This document shows, one piece after another, positions 24,331-62,207 of a DNA stretch of 63,002 nucleotides (its first letter is position 1; each line of letters starts with the position of its first letter). The notes beneath the pieces are model-generated. The model saw nothing but the letters and a program-made list of their open reading frames with translations. It had not been told where the DNA came from and did no database searches. A program made the position numbers and the translations under genes. The DNA is taken from positions 1 through 63,002 of IMG/VR virus record IMGVR_UViG_3300027782_000083; one strand, 5' to 3'. Source of the stretch: a virus. Taxonomy: Duplodnaviria; Caudoviricetes.

Positions 24331-24358
24331 TTGACAAGCAAGTATATAAGCCTAAAAT
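24331..24358 (+). promoter_or_regulatory. Early sigma70 promoter
   Basis: TTGACA-N16-TAAAAT with AT-rich upstream sequence. Confidence 0.65.
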
Positions 24359-24605: not shown

Positions 24606-24685
24606 AGCCACCTTTAAACCCTTTTAGAGGGTTTAGGGATTGCCTCTAGGTAATCATTTAATCAACTGCTATGGAGATTTAAAAA

Positions 24686-24844
24686 ATGACTAGAAAAGAG
24701 TACTTAACAGGCCTTGCCGAAGATTACGGGATTGCCCGCTCAGAAGTTTTCATGCTCGCTGATTTACTAGGTGAGAACGAAGATTATGACGGGCTTTTAT
24801 CTATGTTGGCCGACTATTCCGACAGTTTAGATTTTGACGAGTGA
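24686..24844 (+). CDS. Early hypothetical protein
   Basis: Not in the ORF track; MTRKEYL...LLGENEDYDGL; SD GGAG. Confidence 0.55.
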   Translation: MTRKEYLTGLAEDYGIARSEVFMLADLLGENEDYDGLLSMLADYSDSLDFDE

Positions 24845-26288: not shown

Positions 26289-26310
26289 CCACTAAGCACG
26301 AGGCCACAAA

Positions 26311-27282
26311 ATGACACTATCTTACGGGGTTTATCTAGGCGATAAGTTATTACGGGCTTTTGCCTATGACACTCGCATAGCGGGAGATAAAGAGCGCGCT
26401 CTAAGACTCGCTAAGCGATTAGTAAACGATAACAAAATTTTTGAATGCGATTGCACCATTGAGCATTTTGGCTTAGGTGGTGTAGGAACTACTGTAAACC
26501 ACTAAACACGAGGCCAATAATGGAATTTAGATATATAGACCGCCAAGGGATAGCCCTAGATGATTACGGGCATGAAGTTAAAGATGAAAACGGGCAAATA
26601 ATCATAGTCCCGCCTAGTGAGCGCGGGTTTTACGATATTGCTTATAGACCAGATGAGCAACCAGAAGATTAACCACTAAGCACGAGGCCAAAAATGAAAA
26701 TTAACAAACTATTAGCAGTATTGGAAAACCTAAACCCTGATTTTGATTTGACAGTCTGGGCTAATGGCGAGCGCTATTCATTAGATGGAATAGATACTAG
26801 TTTTTTTGAGCAAGGGTTTATTGAATTAACCGCGTATATGGATAAGCGGGAAACCGCTTACAGAAATGCAGTATTGAACATTCAACACGAGGCCACAAAA
26901 TGATCTATTTTTGTTTAAGTAATGAAGGTGATCTCTATAACTTAGGGGATCATGGGGATTTTGAAAGCGCAGATTGTTGCGCTCAGGATATGCAACTGCA
27001 CCCGATTTGGGTAATAAACGAGCATACCGCTAGAAATTGGTCAGAATTTTTAACCGAACAATTAGCTAACACAATTAGCACCGAACACGAGGCCACAGAA
27101 TGAAAAAAATATACATAGCCAAAGGCTACAACTCATGGACAAATAATCAAATATGGCAAGCATTTAACACCAAGAACGAGGCTGATTCCTTTATTCAAGG
27201 TCTTACTGATCCGCATATTGTCATTATGGCTTATAAGACCACGACTCAATTAGTAAATACTTTATTAAGAGGCCAATTATGA
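26311..27282 (+). CDS. Five small early genes (26311-26505, 26520-26672, 26694-26903, 26900-27103, 27100-27282)
   Basis: Each ATG is the end of a junction repeat containing GAGG. Confidence 0.6.
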
Positions 27283-33816: not shown

Positions 33817-34002
33817 TTATTCTGTTCTTTGTTTTAATGCCTGCTCTGTTATTGATTCATACAACATAAATGATAACTCTCGTAAAGCAAAAGCGGTGTC
33901 GGCTGCCTTGGTAAAATCACGTTGGTTTGCCTGTTCTTGAACCGCTCTTAACAATCTATGAGCTTTAATTGTATATAGAGAATAGTCTTCAAAGCTCATC
34001 AT
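33817..34002 (-). CDS. Hypothetical protein
   Basis: Coupled ORF. Confidence 0.45.
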   Translation of the reverse strand: MMSFEDYSLYTIKAHRLLRAVQEQANQRDFTKAADTAFALRELSFMLYESITEQALKQRTE

Positions 34003-34841
34003 TCACCTTTCTTTTTTTTCTTCATTGAGTTGATTGTCTTTATAAGTTCCGCATTTCTATTCTGAAACATGTCGCGACTCTCTCGTAATGCCTGATTGTC
34101 GATTTCCAGAATACGGATTTGTTCTCTAAGATTCGCAACAGTCTCTTCAATATCAATCTTCTCGATCTCTGATGCGTTCCATTGACCAATCGCGATCTTA
34201 TCTCTGAGAATCGTGTTTTCATCCGCCAGACTTTCGATGGTGTCAATAAGTTCACGCATCTTTTCTTCCGTTGGATCGTAAGCTTTCTCACTTGGTTCAT
34301 CTTTTGTTTCCTCTTTAGGTTCATCCTTTGGCTTCTTGCCAATCTTGGATGTATCCATAGTGGATTCGTTGCCATGCTTATCTACATAGGTCTTCATTAC
34401 CTTTGTTGATAGCGGTTCTCTTTCTTTCTTTACACGCCCTACTGTCATGGCTGATACGCCAATGTGCTTGGCTATCTGTGCGTTAGACCATGTGCTCCAC
34501 TTTGGATGCTTGAGCATAATCTCAATGGATCTGCGGTAGTCCTCCGCGCTCATGTTTAGGCCATGCTTGTTACTTCCAAGAGCAAATAATGTGGCATCTT
34601 CTATCGTGCCATTGATTACATTGGCCTTGATAGTTGTTGATCCACGCTGTCTTTCAGAAGATAGGCGATGGAATCCTTCGGCTAACCATGTGCTTGATCC
34701 ATCAAAGAATACTGTGATGGGTGGGAACTCAACCCCATCATCCATTTGTTGCGCGTATTCGTTTACCTTATCAAGGTTTAACTCTTTGCGTATCTGCGTA
34801 CCACCATCGATACGTATATCGGATATGTTTATTTCTTTCAT
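33999..34841 (-). CDS. ParB/Srx-like N-terminal domain plus HTH protein
   Basis: TQIR...VNEYA...FPPITVF...LAEGFHR; WSNAQIAKHIGVSAMTVGRVK HTH. Confidence 0.75.
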   Translation of the reverse strand: MKEINISDIRIDGGTQIRKELNLDKVNEYAQQMDDGVEFPPITVFFDGSSTWLAEGFHRLSSERQRGSTTIKANVINGTIEDATLFALGSNKHGLNMSAEDYRRSIEIMLKHPKWSTWSNAQIAKHIGVSAMTVGRVKKEREPLSTKVMKTYVDKHGNESTMDTSKIGKKPKDEPKEETKDEPSEKAYDPTEEKMRELIDTIESLADENTILRDKIAIGQWNASEIEKIDIEETVANLREQIRILEIDNQALRESRDMFQNRNAELIKTINSMKKKKKGE

Positions 34842-34878
34842 TTTCTTTCCTAGCAATTGGTCTTACAGTATATCAAAA

Positions 34879-35052
34879 TTAATCTTTGTAACCTACTAAA
34901 TCTGTTGCATCATCAGTTATCAAATAGCCGATGCTACCCGCGTTATCCCGTAATGCTTGAGATATTACTTCGTGCAACAGTGCCACGTTGATATTTGAAG
35001 TCGATACCAGCTTGGCGGTGTAAATCAGTTCCCAATTTTTAAAGTTTTCCAC
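34879..35052 (-). CDS. Small hypothetical protein (57 aa, GTG start)
   Basis: Not in the ORF track; SD AAGGGAG, MENFKNWELIY... Confidence 0.4.
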   Translation of the reverse strand: MENFKNWELIYTAKLVSTSNINVALLHEVISQALRDNAGSIGYLITDDATDLVGYKD

Positions 35053-35099
35053 ACGTACTCCCTTTAGTTATATATGTAACATTAACGCGATAAAGCAAG

Positions 35100-35351
35100 A
35101 TGCTGATTGGTGAACGCACTCCAGCCTCCCAGAGTGCGCCTTTAACTGTATGCTTATTGGAGCCACAGCACTCGCCAGACTTTCGTAGAATCGGATCTAA
35201 GCTTCGCCACCGATTTGTGCGCTGTTACATCTACTATCCCCCAGTTGCGCTTGTATCTATATCGCTGGTGTTTTTAGCCGTCCGATATAAACCGCGAGGA
35301 GAACAAAGAAGACGAACGAATTTAATCGTTTGTCCACATTGTCTTCCTAGC
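35100..35351 (-). ncRNA. Candidate structured leader RNA with 5-codon uORF
   Basis: Several stems; no long - strand ORF; begins at a predicted promoter. Confidence 0.45.
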
Positions 35352-35357
35352 CTGAGT

Positions 35358-35386
35358 AGATTACTCGAAAGAAAAATTATTTGCAA
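35358..35386 (-). promoter_or_regulatory. Sigma70 promoter of the replication operon
   Basis: TTGCAA-N17-TAATCT. Confidence 0.55.
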
Positions 35387-35402
35387 GAGATATTTATTAA
35401 AG

Positions 35403-35513
35403 GAAAACCCCTAGAGGATTAGTCTAGGGGTTTTATGGATCGTGGATCCGAGGCTTGCGTTGCACAAGTCAACTGCTAGGAAAACAATGTGCATGTCAGA
35501 GTGTGGGCTGACA
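35403..35513 (-). ncRNA. Candidate trans-acting antisense small RNA
   Basis: Predicted promoter, three hairpins and a terminator; central loop UUCCUAGCAGUU is complementary to four RBS regions. Confidence 0.7.
35404..35434. terminator. Symmetric Rho-independent terminator
   Basis: AAAACCCCTAGA-N7-TCTAGGGGTTTT. Confidence 0.8.
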
Positions 35514-35518
35514 CACTA

Positions 35519-35548
35519 AATGTACCACAAAATACCAAAATAGGTCAA
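35519..35548 (-). promoter_or_regulatory. Promoter of the candidate sRNA
   Basis: TTGACC-N18-TACATT with TGn extension. Confidence 0.5.
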
Positions 35549-35580
35549 TATGTAGTGCTATCAAGGGTTATTAAGGGGTA

Positions 35581-35871
35581 TCAACGGGTATCAATTATTC
35601 CGTTCTCAAAGAGCCAGCCGATGGTCTTGCGGTGGGCTTCTTCCCACATTTCAACCCGTTCTGCTTTACTTAGGTGTAAACCCTGATCCAGCTTGGAATG
35701 ACACTGAAAACAGAGAGCCGCCACCCTAAAATCGTGCGCCTTCAAGGATCTCCCTTTTCCGTCACGGAGCTGGTTTGAGTGCGCAGCGCAGACTGTGCCG
35801 TCTTCTTTACCGCATGCCTGACATGGGGATTGTCTAAGTATTTCAAGTAGTTTTTTGTTTCTATAAATCAT
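35581..35871 (-). CDS. DUF1364/HNH-like Zn-binding nuclease
   Basis: CQACG...AAHSN...LCFQCH. Confidence 0.6.
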   Translation of the reverse strand: MIYRNKKLLEILRQSPCQACGKEDGTVCAAHSNQLRDGKGRSLKAHDFRVAALCFQCHSKLDQGLHLSKAERVEMWEEAHRKTIGWLFENGIIDTR

Positions 35872-36350
35872 AGTAATAAGTCATTTACATAAAGAAAGCT
35901 ACTATTGGGTATGCAAACGCATTCCTCTGTTCGCACCTCATGGTTACGTCTCATTACTTTTGTTGGATATTTACCAGAAATTAAGAAGTATAAAAATATA
36001 TCGTCAAACTCCACAAAAAACAGAGCGGAAACTTTATATTCTTTACCTTGAGCTTCTAATTTTTCAAACTTTTTTTGGCTAAATTGAAAGTCTGGGAATG
36101 TGCCAAAGTTGTGAAACCTTCTACGATATTCCCCAATAGCCAGCAAATTACCATCGCGGTAGAACTCCCAATCCCAAATACTAAAGTTTTCTTTGGTTTC
36201 TATATCTACCCCTAAGAACTGTTCTAGCTCTCGCCTAGCATTGGACTGGTTCATAGAGTCTTGCTCTACTTGCCAGTCCTCCTTGCGATTAAGGCCTTTT
36301 TCTATTCGTTGCAACCATATTCCTTTAGCTTCTGTCGAAGTCTTTGGCAT
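35868..36350 (-). CDS. Possible PD-(D/E)xK-fold nuclease
   Basis: WDW...IGEYRRR, FFVEFDD. Confidence 0.4.
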   Translation of the reverse strand: MPKTSTEAKGIWLQRIEKGLNRKEDWQVEQDSMNQSNARRELEQFLGVDIETKENFSIWDWEFYRDGNLLAIGEYRRRFHNFGTFPDFQFSQKKFEKLEAQGKEYKVSALFFVEFDDIFLYFLISGKYPTKVMRRNHEVRTEECVCIPNSSFLYVNDLLL

Positions 36351-42028: not shown

Positions 42029-42123
42029 TTGATCTTCCTAGCAGTTAATCAGATTGTAGTTTGCATGATAAAATTACATATGTCAATAGGTCGTACCCAT
42101 ATTTATTCACCTGTTGCATTTTC

Positions 42124-42558: not shown

Positions 42559-42589
42559 AGGGGTAGCCTAAAAAACTACCCCTTTTTTT
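42559..42589 (+). terminator. Rho-independent terminator
   Basis: AGGGGTAG-loop-CTACCCCT followed by a T-run, between convergent genes. Confidence 0.65.
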
Positions 42590-45500
42590 ACTCTTCGTAC
42601 TTCTCTAACTGATCGTTAAACCGTTTCATAATGGTGGCCTTCTGATTCTCAATCCGCTTGATACGATCTTTCGGTAGTCCTCTTTCAATAAACTCTTTCT
42701 TTTGTTTATTGAGCGCGTTAATCTGGTTCTCTACCGTGTTAGCCATCTGCCACATTCTGGCCTCTGGGTATTCTTTTAGGTATGGACCTACAGGTTCTTT
42801 GTTCTTTATGCGACCCTTGATCTCATTCTCATGGTCAGCCATCTTAACAATGTTGTTATAGAACCTTTGGGATTCAGCAGCATTAGACTGTGTTTCGCCA
42901 TAGAAACGACCAGCCAAAGGAATGCGGTAGGAAGGTAGCTCTTCACCTGTAATCGCTGACTTAATAGTCTGTTCGGTTTTCATTAGCTCGCGACCAGCAC
43001 CACCAGTAACTTGACCAACAACATAGTCAATCTCATCTGCCGTTGGGCTTATAAAGCCTTTGCTGTATTTAGTACCGCCAGATGCCAAGTTTAGGAAGTA
43101 AGAGATCTGCTTACTGATTTCGCTGGCAGTTTCACGGGAGCGCATGTAACCTGGGGTTGGGTTAGTAGCGCGATCTTCCTTATAGATTGGTCTGCCAAAC
43201 GCATCTTTGTTAGATTCTAGCGCTGCAAATGGGTCTGCGATAGTTGGCAATACAGTCTGCAATGACAGTCCAGAACTACCGATTGGGCTAAACGCACCAG
43301 CAAAAGCGCCAGTCAAACTAGCTACCTTTTTACCAGCATCTTTGCCACCATTAAGAACAAATTCAGTAGTTATACGACCTAAGTTAGGAAGGATGTGTAA
43401 GCCTAATGGATATGGGATTGTGACGAACTTACCATCTGGCATTGGGATAATAAAGTTACGCTCACGGATAAACTCTGGTGGTTCATCTTCGCGGTATCCA
43501 GCTGCAGCCAGCATGATTGCTTGCATTGTGCCAAGCGCAATACCACCGCCAATAATAGCTTTACCTTTTGGTCCTCTTAAGGTCTGAGCAAGACGGGCAG
43601 TACCCTGAACTGACGCATTAAAGAACGCATAGTACGCATTGACACGGGCTGATAGCTGGCCTTTTTTATCAAAGTTAACAGTCAAATTTTTAGCAACGAT
43701 GGCAGCCTGCTGTTTAGATAAGCCCTTGTCGCGAGCAACCATGTAAGCTGATAAGCGAACTGAGTTTTCCATCATGTCGTTAAAGTCAGACAGCGCACCA
43801 ATGATTGCTTTAAATGCTTTCTTGGTATTGCCACCTGGCTTTAGCTTTTTTAACTCATCTTCAACAATCTGCTTATCTTCATCAGTACGAATCAATGAAT
43901 CACGATAGCCAGTCTGAGCGCCTTCTTTTCTGAACTCTTGGAATGCTTTAGCCCATTTACCTGTGGTGTCAGTCTTGCCCTTACGCTCATCGCGCAGTAC
44001 ATTTAATATCCCACGCATAGCAGGGAATATGTTTTTGGTTACTTTGGCTTGCTCACCAGCAATAGCCGTAGTAGAAAGGTTAACGTTAGCACCGCCTACG
44101 TCACGAATTAAGTTAACCACACCGAAGATTGGGTTGTACTGGGTATTGACGGCTGCAAACCAACGGGTAACTTTGCCAATAATTCCTTCGATAGTGCCAA
44201 GATTATCTGCATCTAAGTTCATTAAAGAATGAACCATGCGCTGGGCCTGTGGATCGTTCTTGTTAAAGAAAATGTAGCGATCCTTGCCGTCAATGCGGAC
44301 AGGGAATACGTTATCGCCAAAGCGTTTTAAGTTATCAATCTTAAGCTTGACTGATTCCTCGGTAAACTCTATAGGTAGTCCAGTTTGAGGATCAGTAAAT
44401 TGCTTTCTTTCTTTACTAATGTAACGAGTCTTAGGCTCATCCATCAGATTTTTAGCAATAGCCTCAGCATCATCAAAGCCAAGTCTTCTTAACTCTTCTA
44501 ATAAAGCATCTTTGCTCTTGATTGCATCTGGGTTTACAGGCAGCCAAAATCCAGGGTTAGGATTCATCAAGGCCAAGCCGTATAAAGCCTTGCCTACTTT
44601 AAGTTTTTCTGCACGAATCAGGGCGCGCTCACGCTGGGCAATTAGGTTTCCAAGAATGTCTTGGACTTCCTTCTCAGAACCCATAGCCCGTTTGCTAAAC
44701 TTGCCACGGACACCAAATCCTTTACTTGCACCAGTAGCTCCAAGGCCACCAGTCTTGGCAAAGTCATCTTCAATACGGAAGAGCGGGACATAATGTTCGT
44801 ATGTGTCATTCCAAGCATCAATAGTCGCTTGGCTTTCTGCACCAGAAGCAACTAAGATGTTCTGGGTTTTCTTAATCATGTTGTCAAACTGCTTGGCAAC
44901 ATTCTCTAAAGCGGCTTTCTTCTGTGGATCTAGTTTGGCTAGGTATTCTCTAGCGTCCTTAGTAGAGATACCAGAAGCGCGATCTTGTAACTCCCATGGG
45001 GTTTCTCTTTCCTTGCCAGTGATTGGGTCTTTTTTATTGACCTCATTCATCTTGTTGTTACGCTCTTCTGCATGGCGGTTATGCAGATATTCTTTAAGAT
45101 CCTGTGGTGTCAGCTTGAGCTTGTTCAAATTCTTAATGGCTGGCATTAACTCATTAAGCAAAAACTCACGGATACCAGTAGCTGTTCTGCCATGGTAAAG
45201 CTGTTCTTTCTGGTATACGTTTAAGTTTTCTTCAATCTCACCCGCTGCCTTTTCAATCGCTTGCTGGGCGCGCTTGGTATCAATCTGTTTGTCTTGAATC
45301 TTGTAGATGAAGTTATCTATGGCCTCATCGCTGATGCCACCAAAGTGCTTGATGTTGTCTTCTGGGAAAGCCCAGTTAGCCTGAACCTTCTGGCCTAGGT
45401 AATTGCGAGCTTCTTTAGTAGGCTTTTCCTGACCATCTTTGCCAACTTCTTCATAACGAATATCAGCAACTTCAGGATTAAATTCTCCTGTATTACCTAT

Positions 45501-48500
45501 AGCTGATTTAAGTTGATTAGATTGAAAAGCAATAATTTCGTTGTATGGCTTGTTATCAGGATCAGTTGTTGCATAAATAATACCGTCATAACCCTCTGCT
45601 TTTATTGCGTCCGCATACTCTTTTGATATTAATTCTGGAAACTCTTTGCTCCCGTTAGCAAAAGATTTTCTTGCCCAATCAAGCATAGCGTCATCATCTA
45701 AAACTAAAGGATTTTCTATCTTTGCATAGAGAGGCATTACATTAGCGCCTTCTCTAAATGGCTCAGTCATTGAACCTATATTGTGCATAGCTGGCTGGAT
45801 GTCAGATCTATCGCTCATCCAAATTGCAGGACCGCTCATTTTTACATCAAAACCGCCTGGTTTTAATATAGATAAGTCTTTAGCAGTAGCATGGTATAGA
45901 ACCATTGGACTACCATCTTCATTGGTAATTTTAGAATTACCAAACCATTTCCTAAACTGAGGTGTGTTAGTTTTTAATGTTGGCTCTTCCTCTAAAGCTG
46001 CTTCTTTTTGGATTCGTGCGTCTGTGGTGCTGTACTCACCAGTGTTACCAATTGCAGATTTAATTTGATTAGAGTCAAAAGGAATATATTGTTCTGGTAT
46101 TCCACCTAACTCGTCTCTAGCATCAATGCTCATTGTGGCTTCATCACTTGTTGTGATAATTCCATCGTAACCCTGAGCTTTCCACTTATTAATCTGGTCC
46201 TGAATATCTTTCCTACTCATGCCAGTTCTTTCGCTAAACCTGTTTGCTTCTAAAGCTGACAGGCGTAGTGGATTTTTAATAGATAAATATACTGGGTAAA
46301 CGCGACCACGTTCTCCTTCAGTTCCTGTTCCGTAATCTCTAATATAGTTGTTAACTCTTTCAACAGCTGCACTAGAATCAACTTTTTTAAGTGTAATATT
46401 TTCGGTATATGGGTCTGTTACAGCATCATAGTCAACATCAACTTTACTTAAAGCTTCCCATTTTCCTTTTCCTAAATACTTATAAACACCATCATCAGTA
46501 CCATAATATTTACCAACTTGAGGATTATCATGGTCAGATAATATGCCAGCATAAGGAACTGTTTTTCCTGCCATGCTTGTATCATCTGATAACTTAAATT
46601 TTGTTAAAGCATTTTGACGCCTCTTTAATAAATCAGTTTGTGCATAAGCACTTGATTCTAGTGGACTGTCACTAAACCAAGATGCTGGATCAAAAATATC
46701 AAAGTCTGGCTTGTCTGTACCATGGTAAACAACTTTAGGGCTACCATCTTCATTAACAACTTTAGAGTCACCAAAGAACTTCTTAAACTGAGGAGTATCA
46801 GTTTTAATTGTTAGACCTTCTTTCTTCATGGTCGGGAAGTCATAACCTTCGGTCTGAGCCAGCCTCTGCATATCCTTTGGAGTCTGTGCAAATATCTGGT
46901 CAGAGACAATCATTATGCGATCTAGCGCTGATTGATAGTCTGGGTTTAATCCAATAACTTTGCGGAAAACTTCCATTAACTTAGTTAATGCTGTTTTCTT
47001 ACCCATGTTTACTGTGGATAAATAAGACTGAACGTTCTTTTCAGTTAGCGCTCTAACAAATAATTCATGGATATCAGTCAAAATTGAGCGATTATTTTTG
47101 CGTCCTACTTCATTTAATAAAGGATGCCATTGACTTTTTGGAAGATCTCTTTTCTGACTTTCAATCTGATCTTTGACTGCGTTGTATATCGAGCGTAACT
47201 CGTTATAGATAACCTTTTCTGGTCCTTTGAAGTTCCGCTTAATAAGCGCGTCTAACTGTACTTGGCTAATAACATGCAACAACTCGTGCATGAGTGTGCT
47301 GTAACGCGTACCAGTTGGTGTAGTAGAAGTAGGCTTGCCTTCTTTAGCTTCTTTAGTTCCAACTTCAAATTCAGCTTGGCCTTTAGAATTTAAGCCGTTG
47401 AAAACAACTTTGAAGTATTGAATATTCTTAGTGCGGCCAGTAGCAAGGCCAGAAGCACCATAGTAATTTCTTCTTTTTGAGCCATTGAGTACTTCAATTT
47501 TTATTGGAACACCAGAATCTTCAATTGCTTTGATGTTTACCAATAAGCGATCAGCAATAGCTTTAGCTGCCTCGTTAGGCGCGTTCTCCACAAGCCATCC
47601 AGCTACCTGAGATCCATCAGTCATTGCCTCAATCTCTTTAGCTATCTGCTCAATTGGTTTTTTAGACTTAAATTGTTTAGGCTCTTCAGGGTTCCTGTCT
47701 GGATCAGTGACCTTTTCAACCTCAGCAAATAGATCTGGCTCAGTCTTCTTAGCAAAAGAATCTTTAATAAGCTGGTCTACTGGGCGCTTTGGAACATCGC
47801 CAAACATGTCTGCGCCTTCTTTGCTACCTTCGTTATAAGCATTGTCAAATAGGTTAGACAGATTCTCGCCAATAGCTTTAGATGAACGGGAATTGTCAGC
47901 AAACATCTGGACAATCTGATTAGCCATTGGGTTGGTAGTCATATCAGCTTGCTTGGCTGCATCAGAAAGGCTGGTATTGTTGCGCCTTGCATTGATAGCT
48001 ATCTCAACAGCCTCATTAACTAATGGGCGAACATCATAATCACCAGCGTCTGTAAGACGGATAGCCTTAGATGCTGCCATGTTTAGGGCGCGAACAATGT
48101 TACGAGCCTCTTCGTCCCGCGCTTGGAAGGCTAACTCTGTGAGCTTGTCGTTACCATAAGCCTGTTGGAAGATGGCTGCATCAACGCGCTCTACGGCTTG
48201 CTTGGTAGGATTGCCTTGCTTATCTATTAGGTTGCCTTGCTCTGTAGTAGGCATGGCTTTAATGAAGTCACGAATAGTCTGCTGGCTTACATCACCAGCA
48301 TCGGTAAAGCTAACTGTAGAAAGATCAAGGCGATTAGTATCGTTCTTGGCTTGCTCTACGATATTGAATGACAGGCCAGCACCAGTGTTACTAACATCAC
48401 CAGTATTTGCGTTAACCTGATCCATAGGCATAACACGAACCAACATAGGGTTCTGCATGCCCTCAATGACGTTCTTATCTATGCCATGTAAATCATCGTT

Positions 48501-50258
48501 TAACAGAGCGTTTCTGTAGTCTGTTGCCGTTCCTTGATTGTAGGCAGCCTGTAATCCAGCTACACGCCCGTTGGTAATGGCTCTAAATGCTGGAACACTA
48601 GGATCTACATAGGCTGCGTTCTTTGTGCCGTCTGCGTTATGGGAAGGAATAACTTCACCAGCTTCAATAACGCCATACTGGATTGGAACTTTCTTGCCAT
48701 CAGATCCAGTAACAGTATCTGTTCTACCTAAACGGGTAGGATCAATCTCACTACCAGCTACGATAGGTGCGCCTGTTCCATAGTCGCGAGACATGCTGAC
48801 ACGGCTATAGTCTGGCTCATTAGCAATCTTGGTCATCTGAGCAATAGATGCAGGGGTAGATCTATCGCGGTTCTGGATACCTTCCCAGACATTTGTGGTT
48901 GGTGCTGGAGGTATGGGTGGTTGCTCAATTGGGGGAGCGGGAGGGACAGGGGGTACAGGAGGAGGCGTAGTCCCCCTGAACTCGTCAATCATCGCCTGAG
49001 TATCTTGCGATTCAGATGGCGGAGCAGCCATTGTAGGTGCTTCAGGTGGTACTACTGGTTTTTGCCCAAACTTTTGGTTTAGTTGTTGGTATTCAGCTCG
49101 TTCTTCTGGGGTGAAATACCTACCTAATTGACCAGGAATCTTTACTTGATTTCCATTTTCATCAACAGTGATCTGATCTTTAGTTCCCTTGGATATGGCA
49201 TTTAATTCATTCCATCGAGCGCGTTGCTCTTCCTCGGAAGGACCTTGTAACGTATCGGTTGTGCCTGGCTTTACAGGGGTCTGATAGGCTTGGATAGCTC
49301 GTGATGTACCACCAATACCAGCACCAGCCGCAGCAGCGCCAAAGAAGGCTTCTTTGTACTCATTAGCAGCTTCATCACCTGTTAACTCTAAGCCAGCTTG
49401 CCAACGCTCTGCAGCCTGTTCTAATACCTCTAATGGGGCTTCTGCAATAATACCAGCGGAGGCGCCTACAGCAGCGCGCTTACCTACCTTGGCAGCTACC
49501 TGACGGGCAGATAGTTCTTTAATGATTTCTTCGCCAGCTTTCTTGGTTCCAAGACCACCTAATCCAGCGGTAAATCTGTCTGCAAAATATCCCAATGGTG
49601 CGGTTGCACCAGCAGTCATGGCTGCTTTTGTAAGGTTTAGCTCTCTAGGGTCATTTTTTTCTATTGCCTGACGGGTCAAGAAGTTACCAAACTGTTGGAT
49701 TCCGTATGTTCCTATACCAACTAGAGCGCCTACCACTGGGGCAGCAGGTCCAAGAGGAGCAGCTAATGCCGTAGCACCAGCACCAGCGGCTAATGGACCA
49801 GCCATCTGTGGGGCAGACTGAAGAACTTGTTCAGTAATGAAACTAGGGACTTGAGCAGCAGCAGCGCCCAGTCCTTGTTGCTTGTAGATACGTTCAATAT
49901 CGCCAGCGGTTAAACCTGGGGTCTCTTGTGGTTTTGCCTGTTCGCGCTTGATCTCCCGCATTTTGGCTGCGGTCTCAGCATCTGTGCCAGTAATGGCAGT
50001 ACCAGCTAAACCTAGGCCACCAGTTATATCACCAAGCGCTTCAACACCACGCTTGGCAGCGCCAATGTTTCTTTCAATAAAGCCTATGTCTTCTGGTCTG
50101 CGTTGTCCAGATGGGACTTCTGGAACGGTTGCTTCTGATTTTTGTGATGAAAGAAGAGATTGCGTAACTCTTTTGGCAGTAGCGCTAATAACTGATGGGT
50201 CAGTTCCGTCTGGAAACTCTAAACGAGTTCCATCGAATAGCTCAGCGTATACCGCCAT
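42588..50258 (-). CDS. Giant polyvalent (probably injected) protein: ddrB-like ParB, HExxH peptidase, two ART-PolyVal-like domains, LPD38-like C-terminus
   Basis: IQNRDR; MHELLH; two TPQF.K.FG.SK...V.YH.T...KSAIGNTGE units; NLTVNF...YAFFNASVQG. Confidence 0.75.
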   Translation of the reverse strand: MAVYAELFDGTRLEFPDGTDPSVISATAKRVTQSLLSSQKSEATVPEVPSGQRRPEDIGFIERNIGAAKRGVEALGDITGGLGLAGTAITGTDAETAAKMREIKREQAKPQETPGLTAGDIERIYKQQGLGAAAAQVPSFITEQVLQSAPQMAGPLAAGAGATALAAPLGPAAPVVGALVGIGTYGIQQFGNFLTRQAIEKNDPRELNLTKAAMTAGATAPLGYFADRFTAGLGGLGTKKAGEEIIKELSARQVAAKVGKRAAVGASAGIIAEAPLEVLEQAAERWQAGLELTGDEAANEYKEAFFGAAAAGAGIGGTSRAIQAYQTPVKPGTTDTLQGPSEEEQRARWNELNAISKGTKDQITVDENGNQVKIPGQLGRYFTPEERAEYQQLNQKFGQKPVVPPEAPTMAAPPSESQDTQAMIDEFRGTTPPPVPPVPPAPPIEQPPIPPAPTTNVWEGIQNRDRSTPASIAQMTKIANEPDYSRVSMSRDYGTGAPIVAGSEIDPTRLGRTDTVTGSDGKKVPIQYGVIEAGEVIPSHNADGTKNAAYVDPSVPAFRAITNGRVAGLQAAYNQGTATDYRNALLNDDLHGIDKNVIEGMQNPMLVRVMPMDQVNANTGDVSNTGAGLSFNIVEQAKNDTNRLDLSTVSFTDAGDVSQQTIRDFIKAMPTTEQGNLIDKQGNPTKQAVERVDAAIFQQAYGNDKLTELAFQARDEEARNIVRALNMAASKAIRLTDAGDYDVRPLVNEAVEIAINARRNNTSLSDAAKQADMTTNPMANQIVQMFADNSRSSKAIGENLSNLFDNAYNEGSKEGADMFGDVPKRPVDQLIKDSFAKKTEPDLFAEVEKVTDPDRNPEEPKQFKSKKPIEQIAKEIEAMTDGSQVAGWLVENAPNEAAKAIADRLLVNIKAIEDSGVPIKIEVLNGSKRRNYYGASGLATGRTKNIQYFKVVFNGLNSKGQAEFEVGTKEAKEGKPTSTTPTGTRYSTLMHELLHVISQVQLDALIKRNFKGPEKVIYNELRSIYNAVKDQIESQKRDLPKSQWHPLLNEVGRKNNRSILTDIHELFVRALTEKNVQSYLSTVNMGKKTALTKLMEVFRKVIGLNPDYQSALDRIMIVSDQIFAQTPKDMQRLAQTEGYDFPTMKKEGLTIKTDTPQFKKFFGDSKVVNEDGSPKVVYHGTDKPDFDIFDPASWFSDSPLESSAYAQTDLLKRRQNALTKFKLSDDTSMAGKTVPYAGILSDHDNPQVGKYYGTDDGVYKYLGKGKWEALSKVDVDYDAVTDPYTENITLKKVDSSAAVERVNNYIRDYGTGTEGERGRVYPVYLSIKNPLRLSALEANRFSERTGMSRKDIQDQINKWKAQGYDGIITTSDEATMSIDARDELGGIPEQYIPFDSNQIKSAIGNTGEYSTTDARIQKEAALEEEPTLKTNTPQFRKWFGNSKITNEDGSPMVLYHATAKDLSILKPGGFDVKMSGPAIWMSDRSDIQPAMHNIGSMTEPFREGANVMPLYAKIENPLVLDDDAMLDWARKSFANGSKEFPELISKEYADAIKAEGYDGIIYATTDPDNKPYNEIIAFQSNQLKSAIGNTGEFNPEVADIRYEEVGKDGQEKPTKEARNYLGQKVQANWAFPEDNIKHFGGISDEAIDNFIYKIQDKQIDTKRAQQAIEKAAGEIEENLNVYQKEQLYHGRTATGIREFLLNELMPAIKNLNKLKLTPQDLKEYLHNRHAEERNNKMNEVNKKDPITGKERETPWELQDRASGISTKDAREYLAKLDPQKKAALENVAKQFDNMIKKTQNILVASGAESQATIDAWNDTYEHYVPLFRIEDDFAKTGGLGATGASKGFGVRGKFSKRAMGSEKEVQDILGNLIAQRERALIRAEKLKVGKALYGLALMNPNPGFWLPVNPDAIKSKDALLEELRRLGFDDAEAIAKNLMDEPKTRYISKERKQFTDPQTGLPIEFTEESVKLKIDNLKRFGDNVFPVRIDGKDRYIFFNKNDPQAQRMVHSLMNLDADNLGTIEGIIGKVTRWFAAVNTQYNPIFGVVNLIRDVGGANVNLSTTAIAGEQAKVTKNIFPAMRGILNVLRDERKGKTDTTGKWAKAFQEFRKEGAQTGYRDSLIRTDEDKQIVEDELKKLKPGGNTKKAFKAIIGALSDFNDMMENSVRLSAYMVARDKGLSKQQAAIVAKNLTVNFDKKGQLSARVNAYYAFFNASVQGTARLAQTLRGPKGKAIIGGGIALGTMQAIMLAAAGYREDEPPEFIRERNFIIPMPDGKFVTIPYPLGLHILPNLGRITTEFVLNGGKDAGKKVASLTGAFAGAFSPIGSSGLSLQTVLPTIADPFAALESNKDAFGRPIYKEDRATNPTPGYMRSRETASEISKQISYFLNLASGGTKYSKGFISPTADEIDYVVGQVTGGAGRELMKTEQTIKSAITGEELPSYRIPLAGRFYGETQSNAAESQRFYNNIVKMADHENEIKGRIKNKEPVGPYLKEYPEARMWQMANTVENQINALNKQKKEFIERGLPKDRIKRIENQKATIMKRFNDQLEKYEE

Positions 50259-60363: not shown

Positions 60364-61455
60364 TTATAACTCCGCAGATAAATTAAAATATGACGAAGAA
60401 TTACTAAGATACATACCTGAAGCATTTCCAGCAACCAAACCTGAGCCGCCTGAAGCAGTTATTCGCAACAGTTTGTTTGAAGAACCACTATCAATAGTCC
60501 ATGTTGTAGCACCACTAGCAGAACCTGTTGAAGTCCAAGCATTAAGGTTATTGTATGAAAGAGTAGGTATTGCTCTCATTTCTGTTGGTGTTACAAATGC
60601 ACCAATAGCGGCAGAAGTTGTATATGCTTGACCTATCATAATTGGTATTCCTGAACCCGACAAACCATAATAATAGCGTTGGCAAAGCATTAATTCAGTA
60701 CCATAAGGTCTGTAATCAAAGCTAGTAGCTGTAGAGCCTACCTCTAGTTGGATACCTGTGACATACCATGTAGCACCAGTATTTGCCGCTAGCTTTACAC
60801 CACCAGTTAATCCACGCTCCACATTTGCCCATGCCGTACTTGCGGCTGACGAGTAAGTTGTTCCAAATCCAAGGTCAAAAAATACAGCAAGACCCCTTTG
60901 ATTAGTTGTTTCCCAAGTTCCGCTTGTATCGCCAGCAATCGTTATTGTTTTGTATTCAAAAGTATTTGCTGAGTTAATTGTGTAACTTGCAATATATCCT
61001 CTATCAGCATTATTGTTTTCAAAACAAACACCAAATGTTCCAGTTAAACTAGACCTGACCCAAAACGACAATGTAATAGTTTTAGCGTTAGCCGTTCCAA
61101 ATCCAAAATCAGCCATATTAAAACCCTCAATAAACTGGGCTAATAAAGGTTGATTAGTTGCAGTTGTTGTTGCAGTTCCTGCTGTAGCTTTTAACGCATA
61201 AGAAAATCCAGTAGGAATAACTGAAGTTTGCTGTTGAAATGTCATTGATTGGTCAACAGGTGCATCGGCTCTAAATCTGTCTGTTAAATAACTAGAGCCA
61301 TTACTTGATATAGTTACTGCCGCACCAGCGTTTCTTTGGTCAATGACTTGTCCGCCATTGATGATGCGGTTGAGGAATGGTCTTGTAGCACTTGTTTGTG
61401 CCGAGCCATCAGAAAAAGTTATAGATGGCGAACTGCCGTTAATGATTGTAGTCAT
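60364..61455 (-). CDS. Tail fibre/carbohydrate-binding receptor protein
   Basis: NRIING...DQRNAG, TLSFWV, GIQLEVGSTATSF, ELMLCQRYY, LSAEL. Confidence 0.7.
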   Translation of the reverse strand: MTTIINGSSPSITFSDGSAQTSATRPFLNRIINGGQVIDQRNAGAAVTISSNGSSYLTDRFRADAPVDQSMTFQQQTSVIPTGFSYALKATAGTATTTATNQPLLAQFIEGFNMADFGFGTANAKTITLSFWVRSSLTGTFGVCFENNNADRGYIASYTINSANTFEYKTITIAGDTSGTWETTNQRGLAVFFDLGFGTTYSSAASTAWANVERGLTGGVKLAANTGATWYVTGIQLEVGSTATSFDYRPYGTELMLCQRYYYGLSGSGIPIMIGQAYTTSAAIGAFVTPTEMRAIPTLSYNNLNAWTSTGSASGATTWTIDSGSSNKLLRITASGGSGLVAGNASGMYLSNSSSYFNLSAEL

Positions 61456-62207
61456 ACTTGTTCCTTACGCTTTTGATGCCATGCCTTAACAGCTTGACTG
61501 ATTTTCATTTTATCCTCGTCTGTGTAAACTCTTTTTGCTCTTGATGCACGCATCTTAGCTTTAGTTTCTTCGCTATGCTTGCGACCTTTGTTAGGACTAT
61601 CATGTTCTGCCCAATAAGCCTTTTGGCTTGCGGACATTTTGGCTTTGGTTTCTTCTGTGTGCGGTATGCCTTTAGTTGGACATGGTCTGCCTTTAAGGGC
61701 TTCTGATAGCTTTCTTTTGCCTTCTTCAGGGTAAGCTTTACCTTTCATGCCTGACTTGCTTCCAAGCGGTCTATTGAGCTTCTTGCCTGTTCTGCTAATA
61801 GACATCTGCTTTCGTGTTTCTTCTGAAAACTTTTTACCCCATTGCGGGTTATTTTCACCAAGATAGCGTTCTCTGAGCCAAGGTCTTTTAATGCCTTTTT
61901 GTGGGTGTGGCTTACCCCACATATGATGCAATTCACCAGCACCAGCACCTTCACCACCTACTGTCAAATTAGCCAGCTTGTAACCTAGTCGCTTTAACTG
62001 GTCAATGCGTTCTTGCTCGCACAAATAGGCGAGTTCTTCGTCAATGTCTTTGGCTAAATAATTGATGGTGTAGCCGTTTGCTTTTTCAACAACACGCTTC
62101 CAATAAATGTTGCGATTCTGCTTGGAGTTGGCACGATAGTCCTTACCCTTTCCAACATAGAAAGGAATGTTAGTATCTTTACGAATATGCTCGTAAACAT
62201 AGAACAT
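61452..62207 (-). CDS. GIY-YIG homing endonuclease with NUMOD3 repeats
   Basis: FYVYEH...FYVGKG, NLTVGGEG, KGRKHSEETKAKM repeats. Confidence 0.8.
   Translation of the reverse strand: MFYVYEHIRKDTNIPFYVGKGKDYRANSKQNRNIYWKRVVEKANGYTINYLAKDIDEELAYLCEQERIDQLKRLGYKLANLTVGGEGAGAGELHHMWGKPHPQKGIKRPWLRERYLGENNPQWGKKFSEETRKQMSISRTGKKLNRPLGSKSGMKGKAYPEEGKRKLSEALKGRPCPTKGIPHTEETKAKMSASQKAYWAEHDSPNKGRKHSEETKAKMRASRAKRVYTDEDKMKISQAVKAWHQKRKEQV

Follow-up and report, generated by a model that had tools for sequence, protein, structure and literature searches.

What is encoded by the roughly 120 nucleotides on the minus strand at positions 35399 to 35520 of an uncultured podovirus genome, ahead of its replication genes, and with which RNAs does the product pair? 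The genome is the IMG/VR virus record IMGVR_UViG_3300027782_000083, a complete record (63,002 bp, CheckV completeness 100%), which we analyzed as a whole and call the window. An earlier note, drawn from the letters of this DNA, had described the element as a phage small RNA (sRNA) whose loop is antisense to a ribosome-binding site (RBS) motif shared by four transcripts, and had cast it as a translational repressor of several targets and a master switch. We find the existence of a discrete sRNA gene carrying an antisense seed to be well supported. As to its function, we hold with moderate confidence that it is a trans-acting antisense sRNA whose primary partner is the 5′ end of the leader of the next transcript downstream, and which probably also represses the recombination and ParB operons at their RBSs.

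The sRNA gene is made up of the following parts:

35519 to 35548, minus strand: sigma-70-type promoter, TTGACC-18-TACATT with TG before the -10, listed by the consensus scan
35399 to 35520, minus strand: sRNA of about 113 nt, with a likely start near 35512 and its end in the U-run 35407-35399 (fold, covariance model R1)
35491 to 35516, minus strand: 5′ hairpin GUGUGUCAG / CUGACAUGC (minimum-energy fold, RNAalifold)
35469 to 35491, minus strand: seed region CACAUUGUUUUCCUAGCAGUUGA, between the first and second hairpins, unpaired in the RNAalifold consensus
35454 to 35468, minus strand: small hairpin CUUGUG-CAA-CGCAAG (minimum-energy fold, RNAalifold)
35437 to 35449, minus strand: small hairpin GGAUC-CAC-GAUCC (minimum-energy fold)
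35404 to 35434, minus strand: intrinsic terminator, a 12-bp stem followed by UUUUCCUUU (fold)

The promoter is the one that the earlier note had pointed out; it matches the consensus at 9 of 12 positions, plus the TG, and its hexamers are kept in 12 homologues, mostly as TTGACA and TATATT. The minimum-energy fold of the 121-nt RNA (-40.4 kcal/mol, z = -5.2 relative to dinucleotide shuffles) contains the first hairpin, the GGAUC/GAUCC hairpin and the terminator that had been proposed. When 12 homologues were folded together with RNAalifold, the first hairpin and the terminator were kept and 8 of the 22 predicted pairs changed on both sides; the 5′ hairpin has 6 pairs, 3 of them changed on both sides, and the terminator has 5 pairs with compensatory changes. 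The CUUGUG/CGCAAG hairpin is nearly invariant and hence shows little covariation, and relatives keep both arms of GGAUC/GAUCC in a rearranged form. The terminator is absent from the output of a simple terminator scan, which may miss it because the A-U pairs of the stem consume part of the T run. The second hairpin of the earlier proposal survives in part. Its outer stem, UGCACA/UGUGCA, appears in neither the minimum-energy fold nor the RNAalifold consensus, CUUGUG/CGCAAG being formed instead, and two related loci (L159 and L163; here L denotes related loci, G related genome records and X1 to X4 RNA-library runs) lack its 5′ half and have the 3′ half unchanged. A short stem of 3-6 bp flanking the core of the seed can be drawn in all 18 distinct versions if offsets are allowed, which is weak evidence, and its composition varies (GUU/GAC, UCU/AGA, UUAU/AUAA, GGUUAG/UUGACU). 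The core itself, CCUAGCAG at 35480-35473, is invariant in 20 of 22 aligned sRNAs, and the seed is variable 5′ of it.

How widely is this gene kept? A search with the ParB-like protein encoded downstream retrieved 43 IMG/VR loci, many of which have the sRNA upstream of the ParB-like gene at identities ranging from 95% down to about 73%. A pattern search with the sRNA core returned 24 viral loci and 6 matches in bacterial or archaeal genome contigs; we rejected these six as homologues, as they are unrelated sequence, the rest of the sRNA is absent and model R1 is negative. R1, a covariance model of the sRNA that we built from 22 sequences, scores the window sRNA at 122 bits and adds more divergent members (L022, L043, L042, L026, L040, L035, L041, L028, L033 and L013/L014). 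The sRNA is thus kept in about 25 or more uncultured podovirus contigs of IMG/VR. We found no Rfam family for it, either in the whole window at the gathering threshold or in positions 34700-35900 at E values up to 10, where only chance-level rows appeared, and a blastn search with the 1.1-kb sRNA region in 50,697 deposited phage records gave no match. Nor did we find an sRNA of this podovirus group described in the literature searched, which included passages of PMC9599517; the main text of that paper, which deals with this phage group, mentions none of the words sRNA, small RNA, noncoding and ribozyme. The gene has its own promoter and Rho-independent terminator, as is typical of trans-acting base-pairing sRNAs, and shares with them a conserved, accessible seed, complementary targets and seed-target covariation, the last at the leader and not at the ParB RBS site.

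The strongest partner of the seed lies a short distance downstream on the same strand, where we located these features:

35358 to 35386, minus strand: putative promoter of the leader and non-coding RNA, TTGCAA-17-TAATCT, from conserved hexamers
35335 to 35351, minus strand: primary target (site 3), GCUAGGAAGACAAUGUG, the likely first 17 nt of the leader transcript, complementary to the seed
35294 to 35351, minus strand: predicted 5′ hairpin of the leader, about 58 nt, whose 5′ arm is the sRNA target and whose 3′ arm resembles the seed
35170 to 35292, minus strand: Betaproteobacteria-1 RNA (Rfam RF02932), 90.2 bits relative to a gathering score of 49.4, model positions 1-120

The hexamers TTGCAAA and TA..CT (-10) are invariant in 18 aligned loci, 17 nt apart, and stand between the terminator and the target. 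Because the target begins about 6 nt after them, it is most likely the 5′ end of a separate transcript, which would start from its own promoter about 45 nt after the sRNA terminator. Site 3 forms 17 pairs with the seed, including 1 G-U, as had been counted before. It had been taken for a leader upstream open reading frame (uORF), a candidate that we rejected: the uORF has five codons in the window, neither its frame nor its length is conserved, and L004 has no ATG, so that the site is better described as the start of the neighboring non-coding transcript. In 12 of 12 loci scanned, the local seed pairs best with the local leader site, 40-140 nt downstream of the sRNA terminator, and the pairing persists at spacings between sRNA and target that range from about 45 to about 137 nt with unrelated inserts (for example in L175, L015 and L044).

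Moreover, seed and leader vary together. As MAFFT staggers the variable seed columns, we replaced column-wise pair counting with an anchored, ungapped script, which was applied to 20 unique seed/target combinations. Cognate combinations paired 10.55 of 14 variable positions and non-cognate ones 6.86 of 14; the mean duplex energies were -25.7 and -16.4 kcal/mol, respectively, and the cognate leader target ranked first for 15 of the 20 seeds. Single cases illustrate the trend. A U-to-A change in the L003/L169 seed has its match in an A-to-U change in the target; the entire 5′ flank of the seed differs in L163, L160 and L173, and the target differs with it; and the window and L046 share a seed and have targets that differ at 3 positions, all of them still paired (A-U to G-U or G-U to A-U). 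A count of G-U against A-C mismatches, used as a strand test, was uninformative (21 and 32, duplex ends included). In a distant sister clade (L026, L040-L043 and L035) the seed is CU-rich and has another core, and the leader starts with a matching AUGAGAGA-type sequence. That seed and target co-vary even when the core has changed is strong comparative evidence that the seed and the leader 5′ end have co-evolved as RNA-RNA partners. The RNA-RNA recognition argued for in the earlier note therefore gains support from extensive compensatory changes, and the covariation that the note proposed to test among relatives is seen at site 3, the leader, only.

When not bound, the first bases of the leader would form the 5′ arm of the hairpin listed above. 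Most of 20 homologues have a similarly long hairpin as their minimum-energy fold, and its arms co-vary (arm-arm duplexes of -16.2 kcal/mol in cognate and -11.5 kcal/mol in non-cognate combinations, with the cognate first in 9 of 20), which accounts for the resemblance of the 3′ arm to the sRNA seed. We also considered the hairpin as a second terminator and rejected this, as its 3′ arm is U-rich in the window and not in relatives such as L160. The hairpin lies outside the RF02932 model and is followed directly by the Betaproteobacteria-1 RNA, the only Rfam family found in the whole window at the gathering threshold, which occurs above threshold at the equivalent position in 11 further loci. The sRNA is not part of the RF02932 model; its neighbor is a full-length member. 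Rfam classes the motif as an sRNA gene; we found no stated function for it, and its name occurs 0 times in the main text of the discovery paper (PMC5737381). Nine other sRNA-bearing loci that were scanned have no Rfam match at this position, and most of them carry there another conserved sequence, which starts CCGUACUCCAAACGAUAUCA, continues via CCUAAAUGGG and ACAUAGGCC and scores below every Rfam gathering score (L026 at about 1180-1262; also L042, L040, L041, L035, L033, L037 and L160). This element may be an undescribed structured RNA. In G001 there is a second Betaproteobacteria-1 copy (L148, 16258-16378, plus strand, 83 bits) distant from the sRNA locus, and we recognized no sRNA beside it. 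Downstream of the Betaproteobacteria-1 RNA of the window stands a hairpin at 35100-35135 (minus strand), GGCGCACUC ... GAGUGCGUU, with a counterpart in G002 at about 19594 (minus strand). Its loop resembles a Shine-Dalgarno sequence (CUGGGAGG in the window, CUGCUAGGG in L004/G002) and matches the seed a second time, more weakly (-17.9 kcal/mol in the window and -24.5 kcal/mol in L004/G002).

Is the leader the only partner? The earlier note had listed three more sites, all covering a Shine-Dalgarno sequence. We scanned the genome with the 25-nt seed in 41,982 windows on both strands, for which the background has a mean of -7.9 and a standard deviation of 3.0 kcal/mol. Sites 3, 1 and 2 are the best three non-self duplexes of the whole set, and the next best, elsewhere in the genome, reaches -22.6 kcal/mol:

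35351, minus strand: site 3, leader, -29.1 kcal/mol, best non-self duplex
42050, minus strand: site 1, recombination operon, -25.5 kcal/mol, second-best non-self duplex
34862, minus strand: site 2, ParB-like gene, -24.1 kcal/mol, third-best non-self duplex
24649, plus strand: site 4, -20.5 kcal/mol, about 11th

Among 239 candidate translation starts, 2 non-self sites lie at -24 kcal/mol or lower; for 100 shuffled seeds the corresponding number averages 0.04 and is at most 1. The mean best score of the shuffled seeds is -20.0 kcal/mol, which is the level of site 4. The sites at translation starts, and the promoter that goes with one of them, are as follows:

42035 to 42046, minus strand: site 1, RBS box AACUGCUAGGAA before the first gene (42028-41801) of the exonuclease and ERF recombination operon, an exact 12/12 complement of the seed
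34845 to 34859, minus strand: site 2, RBS box CAAUUGCUAGGAAAG of the ParB-like mRNA, whose AUG is at 34841; 15 pairs, 2 of them G-U
34867 to 34875, minus strand: putative promoter of the ParB-like operon, an extended -10, TGATATACT, conserved in relatives
24662 to 24676, plus strand: site 4, degenerate box UCAACUGCUAuGGAG before a 52-codon ORF (24686-24844), a doubtful target whose pairing needs a bulge

The complementarity counted earlier at sites 1 and 2 was reproduced, and both overlie the Shine-Dalgarno sequence, 5-7 nt ahead of the AUG. Upstream of the ParB-like gene, the arrangement TGnTATACT-N8-9-AACTGCTAGGAG is conserved in 10 loci (L003-L012), which points to an extended -10 promoter followed by a very short leader. 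Ahead of the recombination operon stands a perfect TTGACA, kept in relatives, together with a weak -10. Site 4, at the chance level of shuffled seeds, was rejected as a target. In G004 the CTGCTAGG box of the homologous gene is intact. A hairpin of the bidirectional-terminator type, AAACCC ... GGGUUU, stands at 24617-24637, immediately ahead of site 4, so that the site follows a hairpin and not a promoter; the nearest strong promoter is TTGACA-16-TAAAAT at 24331-24358.

In the relatives, the sequence complementary to the core recurs as a repeated RBS box, AACUGCUAGGAG, of which G005 has six exact copies and G010 and G009 have five each, most of them in an opposite-strand block of small genes. 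At the exonuclease loci, 27 of 80 have CTGCTAGG followed by a start codon, at the gene or upstream of it. Across 11 records with an CCUAGCAG-type or related sRNA, CTGCTAGG occurs 46 times where about 14.5 occurrences are expected by length; by a crude classification, 34 copies directly precede a potential start codon, 8 belong to the sRNA gene and 4 are elsewhere. The four records with a different sRNA seed (the sister clade, G011-G014) have no CTGCTAGG in three cases and 2 copies in the fourth. An unbiased search for enriched 8-mers at start sites was noisy and recovered the box in G005 only. In the sRNA, CCUAGC is followed by an invariant CAG(UU), which pairs with AACUG in the boxes; the leader of most loci, in which the bases ahead of GCUAGG vary and probably precede the transcription start, offers it no partner. 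In G006 and G007, where the core has changed, pairing with the box is kept in a shifted register further upstream, with a 13-nt exact match in G006 and a bipartite recombination site in G007.

Several of these boxes in relatives follow sequences that resemble self-cleaving RNAs. The hammerhead ribozyme has a conserved core, CUGANGA ... GAAA ... UH, and three stems. Upstream of AACUGCUAGGAG boxes in G005, G006, G007 and G010 we found hammerhead-like elements with the core CUGAUGAG ... CGAAAC ... GUC and all three stems. A strict pattern yields 7 elements in these four records, 5 of them with 6/6 stem I pairs, and none in the window; examples are:

L155, 8870-8925, 9380-9437 and 10110-10163: hammerhead-like elements found by pattern, with others in G006, G007 and G010

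The predicted cleavage site falls 6-8 nt upstream of the AACUGCUAGGAG box. In Rfam these elements are subthreshold (E 0.36-0.63, 21-25 bits, gathering scores 48-56). From this arrangement, the box would come to lie near the 5′ end of the mRNA, whether that end is set by a promoter or by self-cleavage.

RNA libraries cover part of this region. Four metatranscriptome runs, one from each of four studies (wastewater, two lake waters and fish gut), yielded contigs of close relatives, 95-99% alike to the window, that cover 34993-35367, which comprises the leader, the Betaproteobacteria-1 RNA and about 170 nt beyond. This hints that the non-coding region is present in RNA libraries and does not prove a discrete sRNA. 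In X2-X4 the sRNA is without a contig, and the ParB gene part is uncovered in every run, gaps that are meaningless given that these are contigs and were filtered.

A number of results weigh against the reading of a trans-acting sRNA with the leader as primary and the RBS boxes as additional targets. Some concern promoters and transcripts. The earlier note had placed three sites just after predicted promoters, and of the promoters concerned the scan lists that of the sRNA only: the leader promoter is below the threshold of the consensus scan, the ParB-like promoter was not found by the -35/-10 scan and that of the recombination operon is below the consensus scan as well, so that these three are read from conserved hexamers. 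One X1 contig, the only RNA-library contig over the sRNA, covers 35342-35557 and extends further upstream, past the sRNA promoter; RNA ends are not visible in contigs, and DNA may be present in RNA libraries. At -23.9 kcal/mol, relative to -29.1 kcal/mol for the sRNA duplex, the leader hairpin is called as stable as that duplex, so invasion by the sRNA is not assured. R1 matched none of the 5 deposited phage records closest by terminase, an empty result that carries little weight. Other results concern the RBS boxes. At the ParB site, cognate and non-cognate duplexes in 9 loci are alike (-22.1 and -21.8 kcal/mol), that is, there is no covariation; compensatory changes seen in the leader, as in L003 (U to A) and L007 (U to C), have no counterpart at the boxes. 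That core and box occur together rests on two clades and is for that reason not independent evidence. The sister clade (G011-G014) has the sRNA-leader pair only, with no repeated second target, which means that the RBS sites may play no part in the conserved function. Finally, the window has a second start-site cassette, CACGAGGCCA-N3-4-ATG, in full form (AACCACUAA)RCACGAGGCCA-N3-4-AUG, with 5 copies at 26297-27093 (plus strand) that precede consecutive small genes, about 0.9 copies being expected by chance. No antisense copy of this cassette exists anywhere in the genome, so repeated RBS cassettes need not imply an sRNA.

The results on the boxes bear most directly on the alternative that survives best, namely that the sRNA is real and acts in trans, and that it has a single functional target, the 5′ hairpin of the neighboring leader or non-coding RNA, the matches to RBS boxes being a by-product. 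Such a by-product would arise because in the clade of the window the leader itself starts like a box (GCUAGGAG and then a start-like triplet), and any RNA that pairs with it resembles an anti-RBS RNA. Covariation restricted to the leader, a sister clade with the leader target alone, a repeated cassette lacking an antisense partner and a fourth site at noise level all favor this view. It does not explain why the invariant CAG(UU) pairs with the AACUG of the box and is mostly partnerless in the leader, why two RBS sites rank second and third among the duplexes of the genome, or why G006 and G007 keep box pairing by a shifted register. We consider this alternative unlikely, though a serious contender. 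The claim of a multi-target translational master switch is accordingly left as plausible but unproven: the RBS complementarity is conserved and the box is repeated in relatives, and against this stand the missing covariation at ParB and the loss of site 4.

The results on transcription bear on a second alternative, in which no independent sRNA exists and a read-through transcript has 35520-35294 as its one cis-acting leader. Seed, 5′ arm and 3′ arm would then form alternative intramolecular helices exerting attenuator-like or riboswitch-like control over the Betaproteobacteria-1 RNA and the replication genes. The parts are always adjacent and on the same strand, the three segments permit two mutually exclusive helices, and the X1 contig spans both the terminator and the leader promoter. 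Nevertheless, a 12-bp, GC-rich terminator with its U-run separates the segments and is kept by compensatory changes, a conserved -35/-10 pair stands between terminator and target, and the spacing between seed and target varies with unrelated inserts and no loss of pairing, all of which makes a cis-acting leader improbable. It is highly improbable that the shared motif is a DNA operator for a phage protein such as the ParB-like one, with the inverted copy in the sRNA as another operator, for even though the sites are near putative promoters and a ParB-like gene is adjacent, the complementarity spans 17-20 nt of otherwise unconserved sequence and tolerates G-U, as RNA pairing would, the boxes are nearly all mRNA-sense before start codons or the sRNA gene itself, those of relatives follow hammerhead-like cleavage sites and not promoters, and the element has its own promoter, hairpins and terminator.

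Returning to the trans-acting sRNA with the leader as its primary partner, we propose the following course of events. Host RNA polymerase would transcribe about 113 nt from the near-consensus promoter to the strong intrinsic terminator, and the unpaired seed would bind the first 17-20 nt of the next transcript. Left unbound, these leader bases would form the 5′ arm of the hairpin that precedes the Betaproteobacteria-1 RNA and the replication genes. Since the target is the 5′ arm and the 3′ arm resembles the seed, the sRNA must compete with the leader hairpin, most likely on the nascent RNA, before the 3′ arm is synthesized. The expected effect would be repressive, the leader or non-coding RNA being refolded, destabilized or cleaved and the output of the replication module lowered. 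In the clade of the window, the core CCUAGCAG(UU) would in addition pair with the 5′-proximal RBS boxes of the recombination and ParB operons and block ribosomes there.

The genes that follow the Betaproteobacteria-1 RNA are these:

33999 to 34841, minus strand: ParB-like gene (PHROGs phrog_1033)
33797-32289, minus strand: helicase (phrog_16; Pfam ResIII and Helicase_C)
31863-31030, minus strand: primase (PHROGs phrog_2249)

Between the Betaproteobacteria-1 RNA and the ParB-like gene there is also a 57-codon ORF, which is conserved in L003 and L007 only. The large terminase of the window is 57-58% identical to those of phage DSL-LC04, phage 023Pt_psg01 and Pelagibacter phage HTVC027P and 53% identical to that of HTVC023P, from which we take the phage to be an HTVC023P-like podovirus. 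It is probably lytic: no integrase or repressor family was present among the 30 window ORFs scanned, which are a subset of all its ORFs. No tRNA genes were found in the window. Two ORFs resemble homing endonucleases (phrog_314; 1281-2096 and 61452-62207, both minus strand), an HNH endonuclease ORF (phrog_131; 35581-35871, minus strand) lies directly upstream of the sRNA promoter, and a single ORF of 2,556 codons (42588-50258, minus strand) in the structural region adjoins the divergent promoter region that contains site 1.

How does this system compare with known ones? In its logic the sRNA is similar to P1 c4, P4 CI and ColE1 RNA I, and it is outside those families; the earlier note had drawn the first two of these analogies and had not taken the sequence for either RNA, and the lack of any model match in the Rfam scans confirms that it is no member of the C4 family. 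In P1/P7 c4 and P4 CI, a small RNA encoded on the same strand just upstream of its target has a seed-target specificity that co-varies from one relative to another, and the primase-helicase is among the genes under this control in P4. Here too, the seed (35491-35469) is on the same strand as the target (35351-35335) and upstream of it, the target sites are at the start of the downstream transcript and at RBSs, seed and target co-vary among related phages and, as in P4, replication genes (here the helicase and primase) are downstream. The sRNA differs in having its own promoter and terminator, whereas c4 and CI are processed from the target transcript, and in that its target is the 5′ arm of a hairpin preceding a structured non-coding RNA. 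A role in lysogenic immunity is unsupported, because the phage looks lytic. As with ColE1 RNA I and RNA II, the partner of the small RNA is the 5′ region of a longer, structured RNA near replication functions, and binding would compete with the folding of the target, so that timing on the nascent RNA would decide. Unlike RNA I, the sRNA is not encoded opposite its target, and the complementarity is therefore maintained by the co-evolution of two separate loci; we obtained no evidence for the Betaproteobacteria-1 RNA as a primer or for a nearby origin. In T4, RegA is a translational repressor and RegB a nuclease that cuts GGAG in early RBSs. If the boxes are real targets, the likeness is that a sequence common to the RBSs of many early and middle mRNAs would let one phage factor shut them off; the difference is that the factor would be an RNA instead of a protein and that its box, AACUGCUAGGAG, is longer and near the mRNA 5′ end.

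A broader picture can be sketched tentatively, as something we think rather doubtful for now. Together with the sRNA, the 5′ hairpin that precedes the Betaproteobacteria-1 RNA, or the alternative non-coding RNA in its place, might form a fast-evolving lock and key that sets replication output in lytic freshwater podoviruses, in the manner of a ColE1-type determinant of copy control or incompatibility, and discriminates between co-infecting relatives. In one clade the sRNA might have become an RNA counterpart of T4 RegA, silencing early and middle mRNAs that share a 5′ box, with their 5′ ends set by promoters or by hammerhead self-cleavage.

For the Betaproteobacteria-1 motif, the window contributes the phage location, the 5′ hairpin and the antisense partner. 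An orphan Rfam motif thereby gains a setting: it is phage-borne, follows a conserved 5′ hairpin, stands at the head of the module that comprises the ParB-like gene, helicase and primase, and is matched by an antisense partner of its own that co-evolves. The sRNA adds a family of antisense regulators in abundant uncultured freshwater podoviruses, and its more than 20 matched natural seed/target pairs are a ready panel of orthogonal RNA-RNA pairs, in which the mechanism is testable by compensatory mutants. If the regulon of RBS boxes proves true, these phages would have an RNA-based version of global early-gene shut-off.

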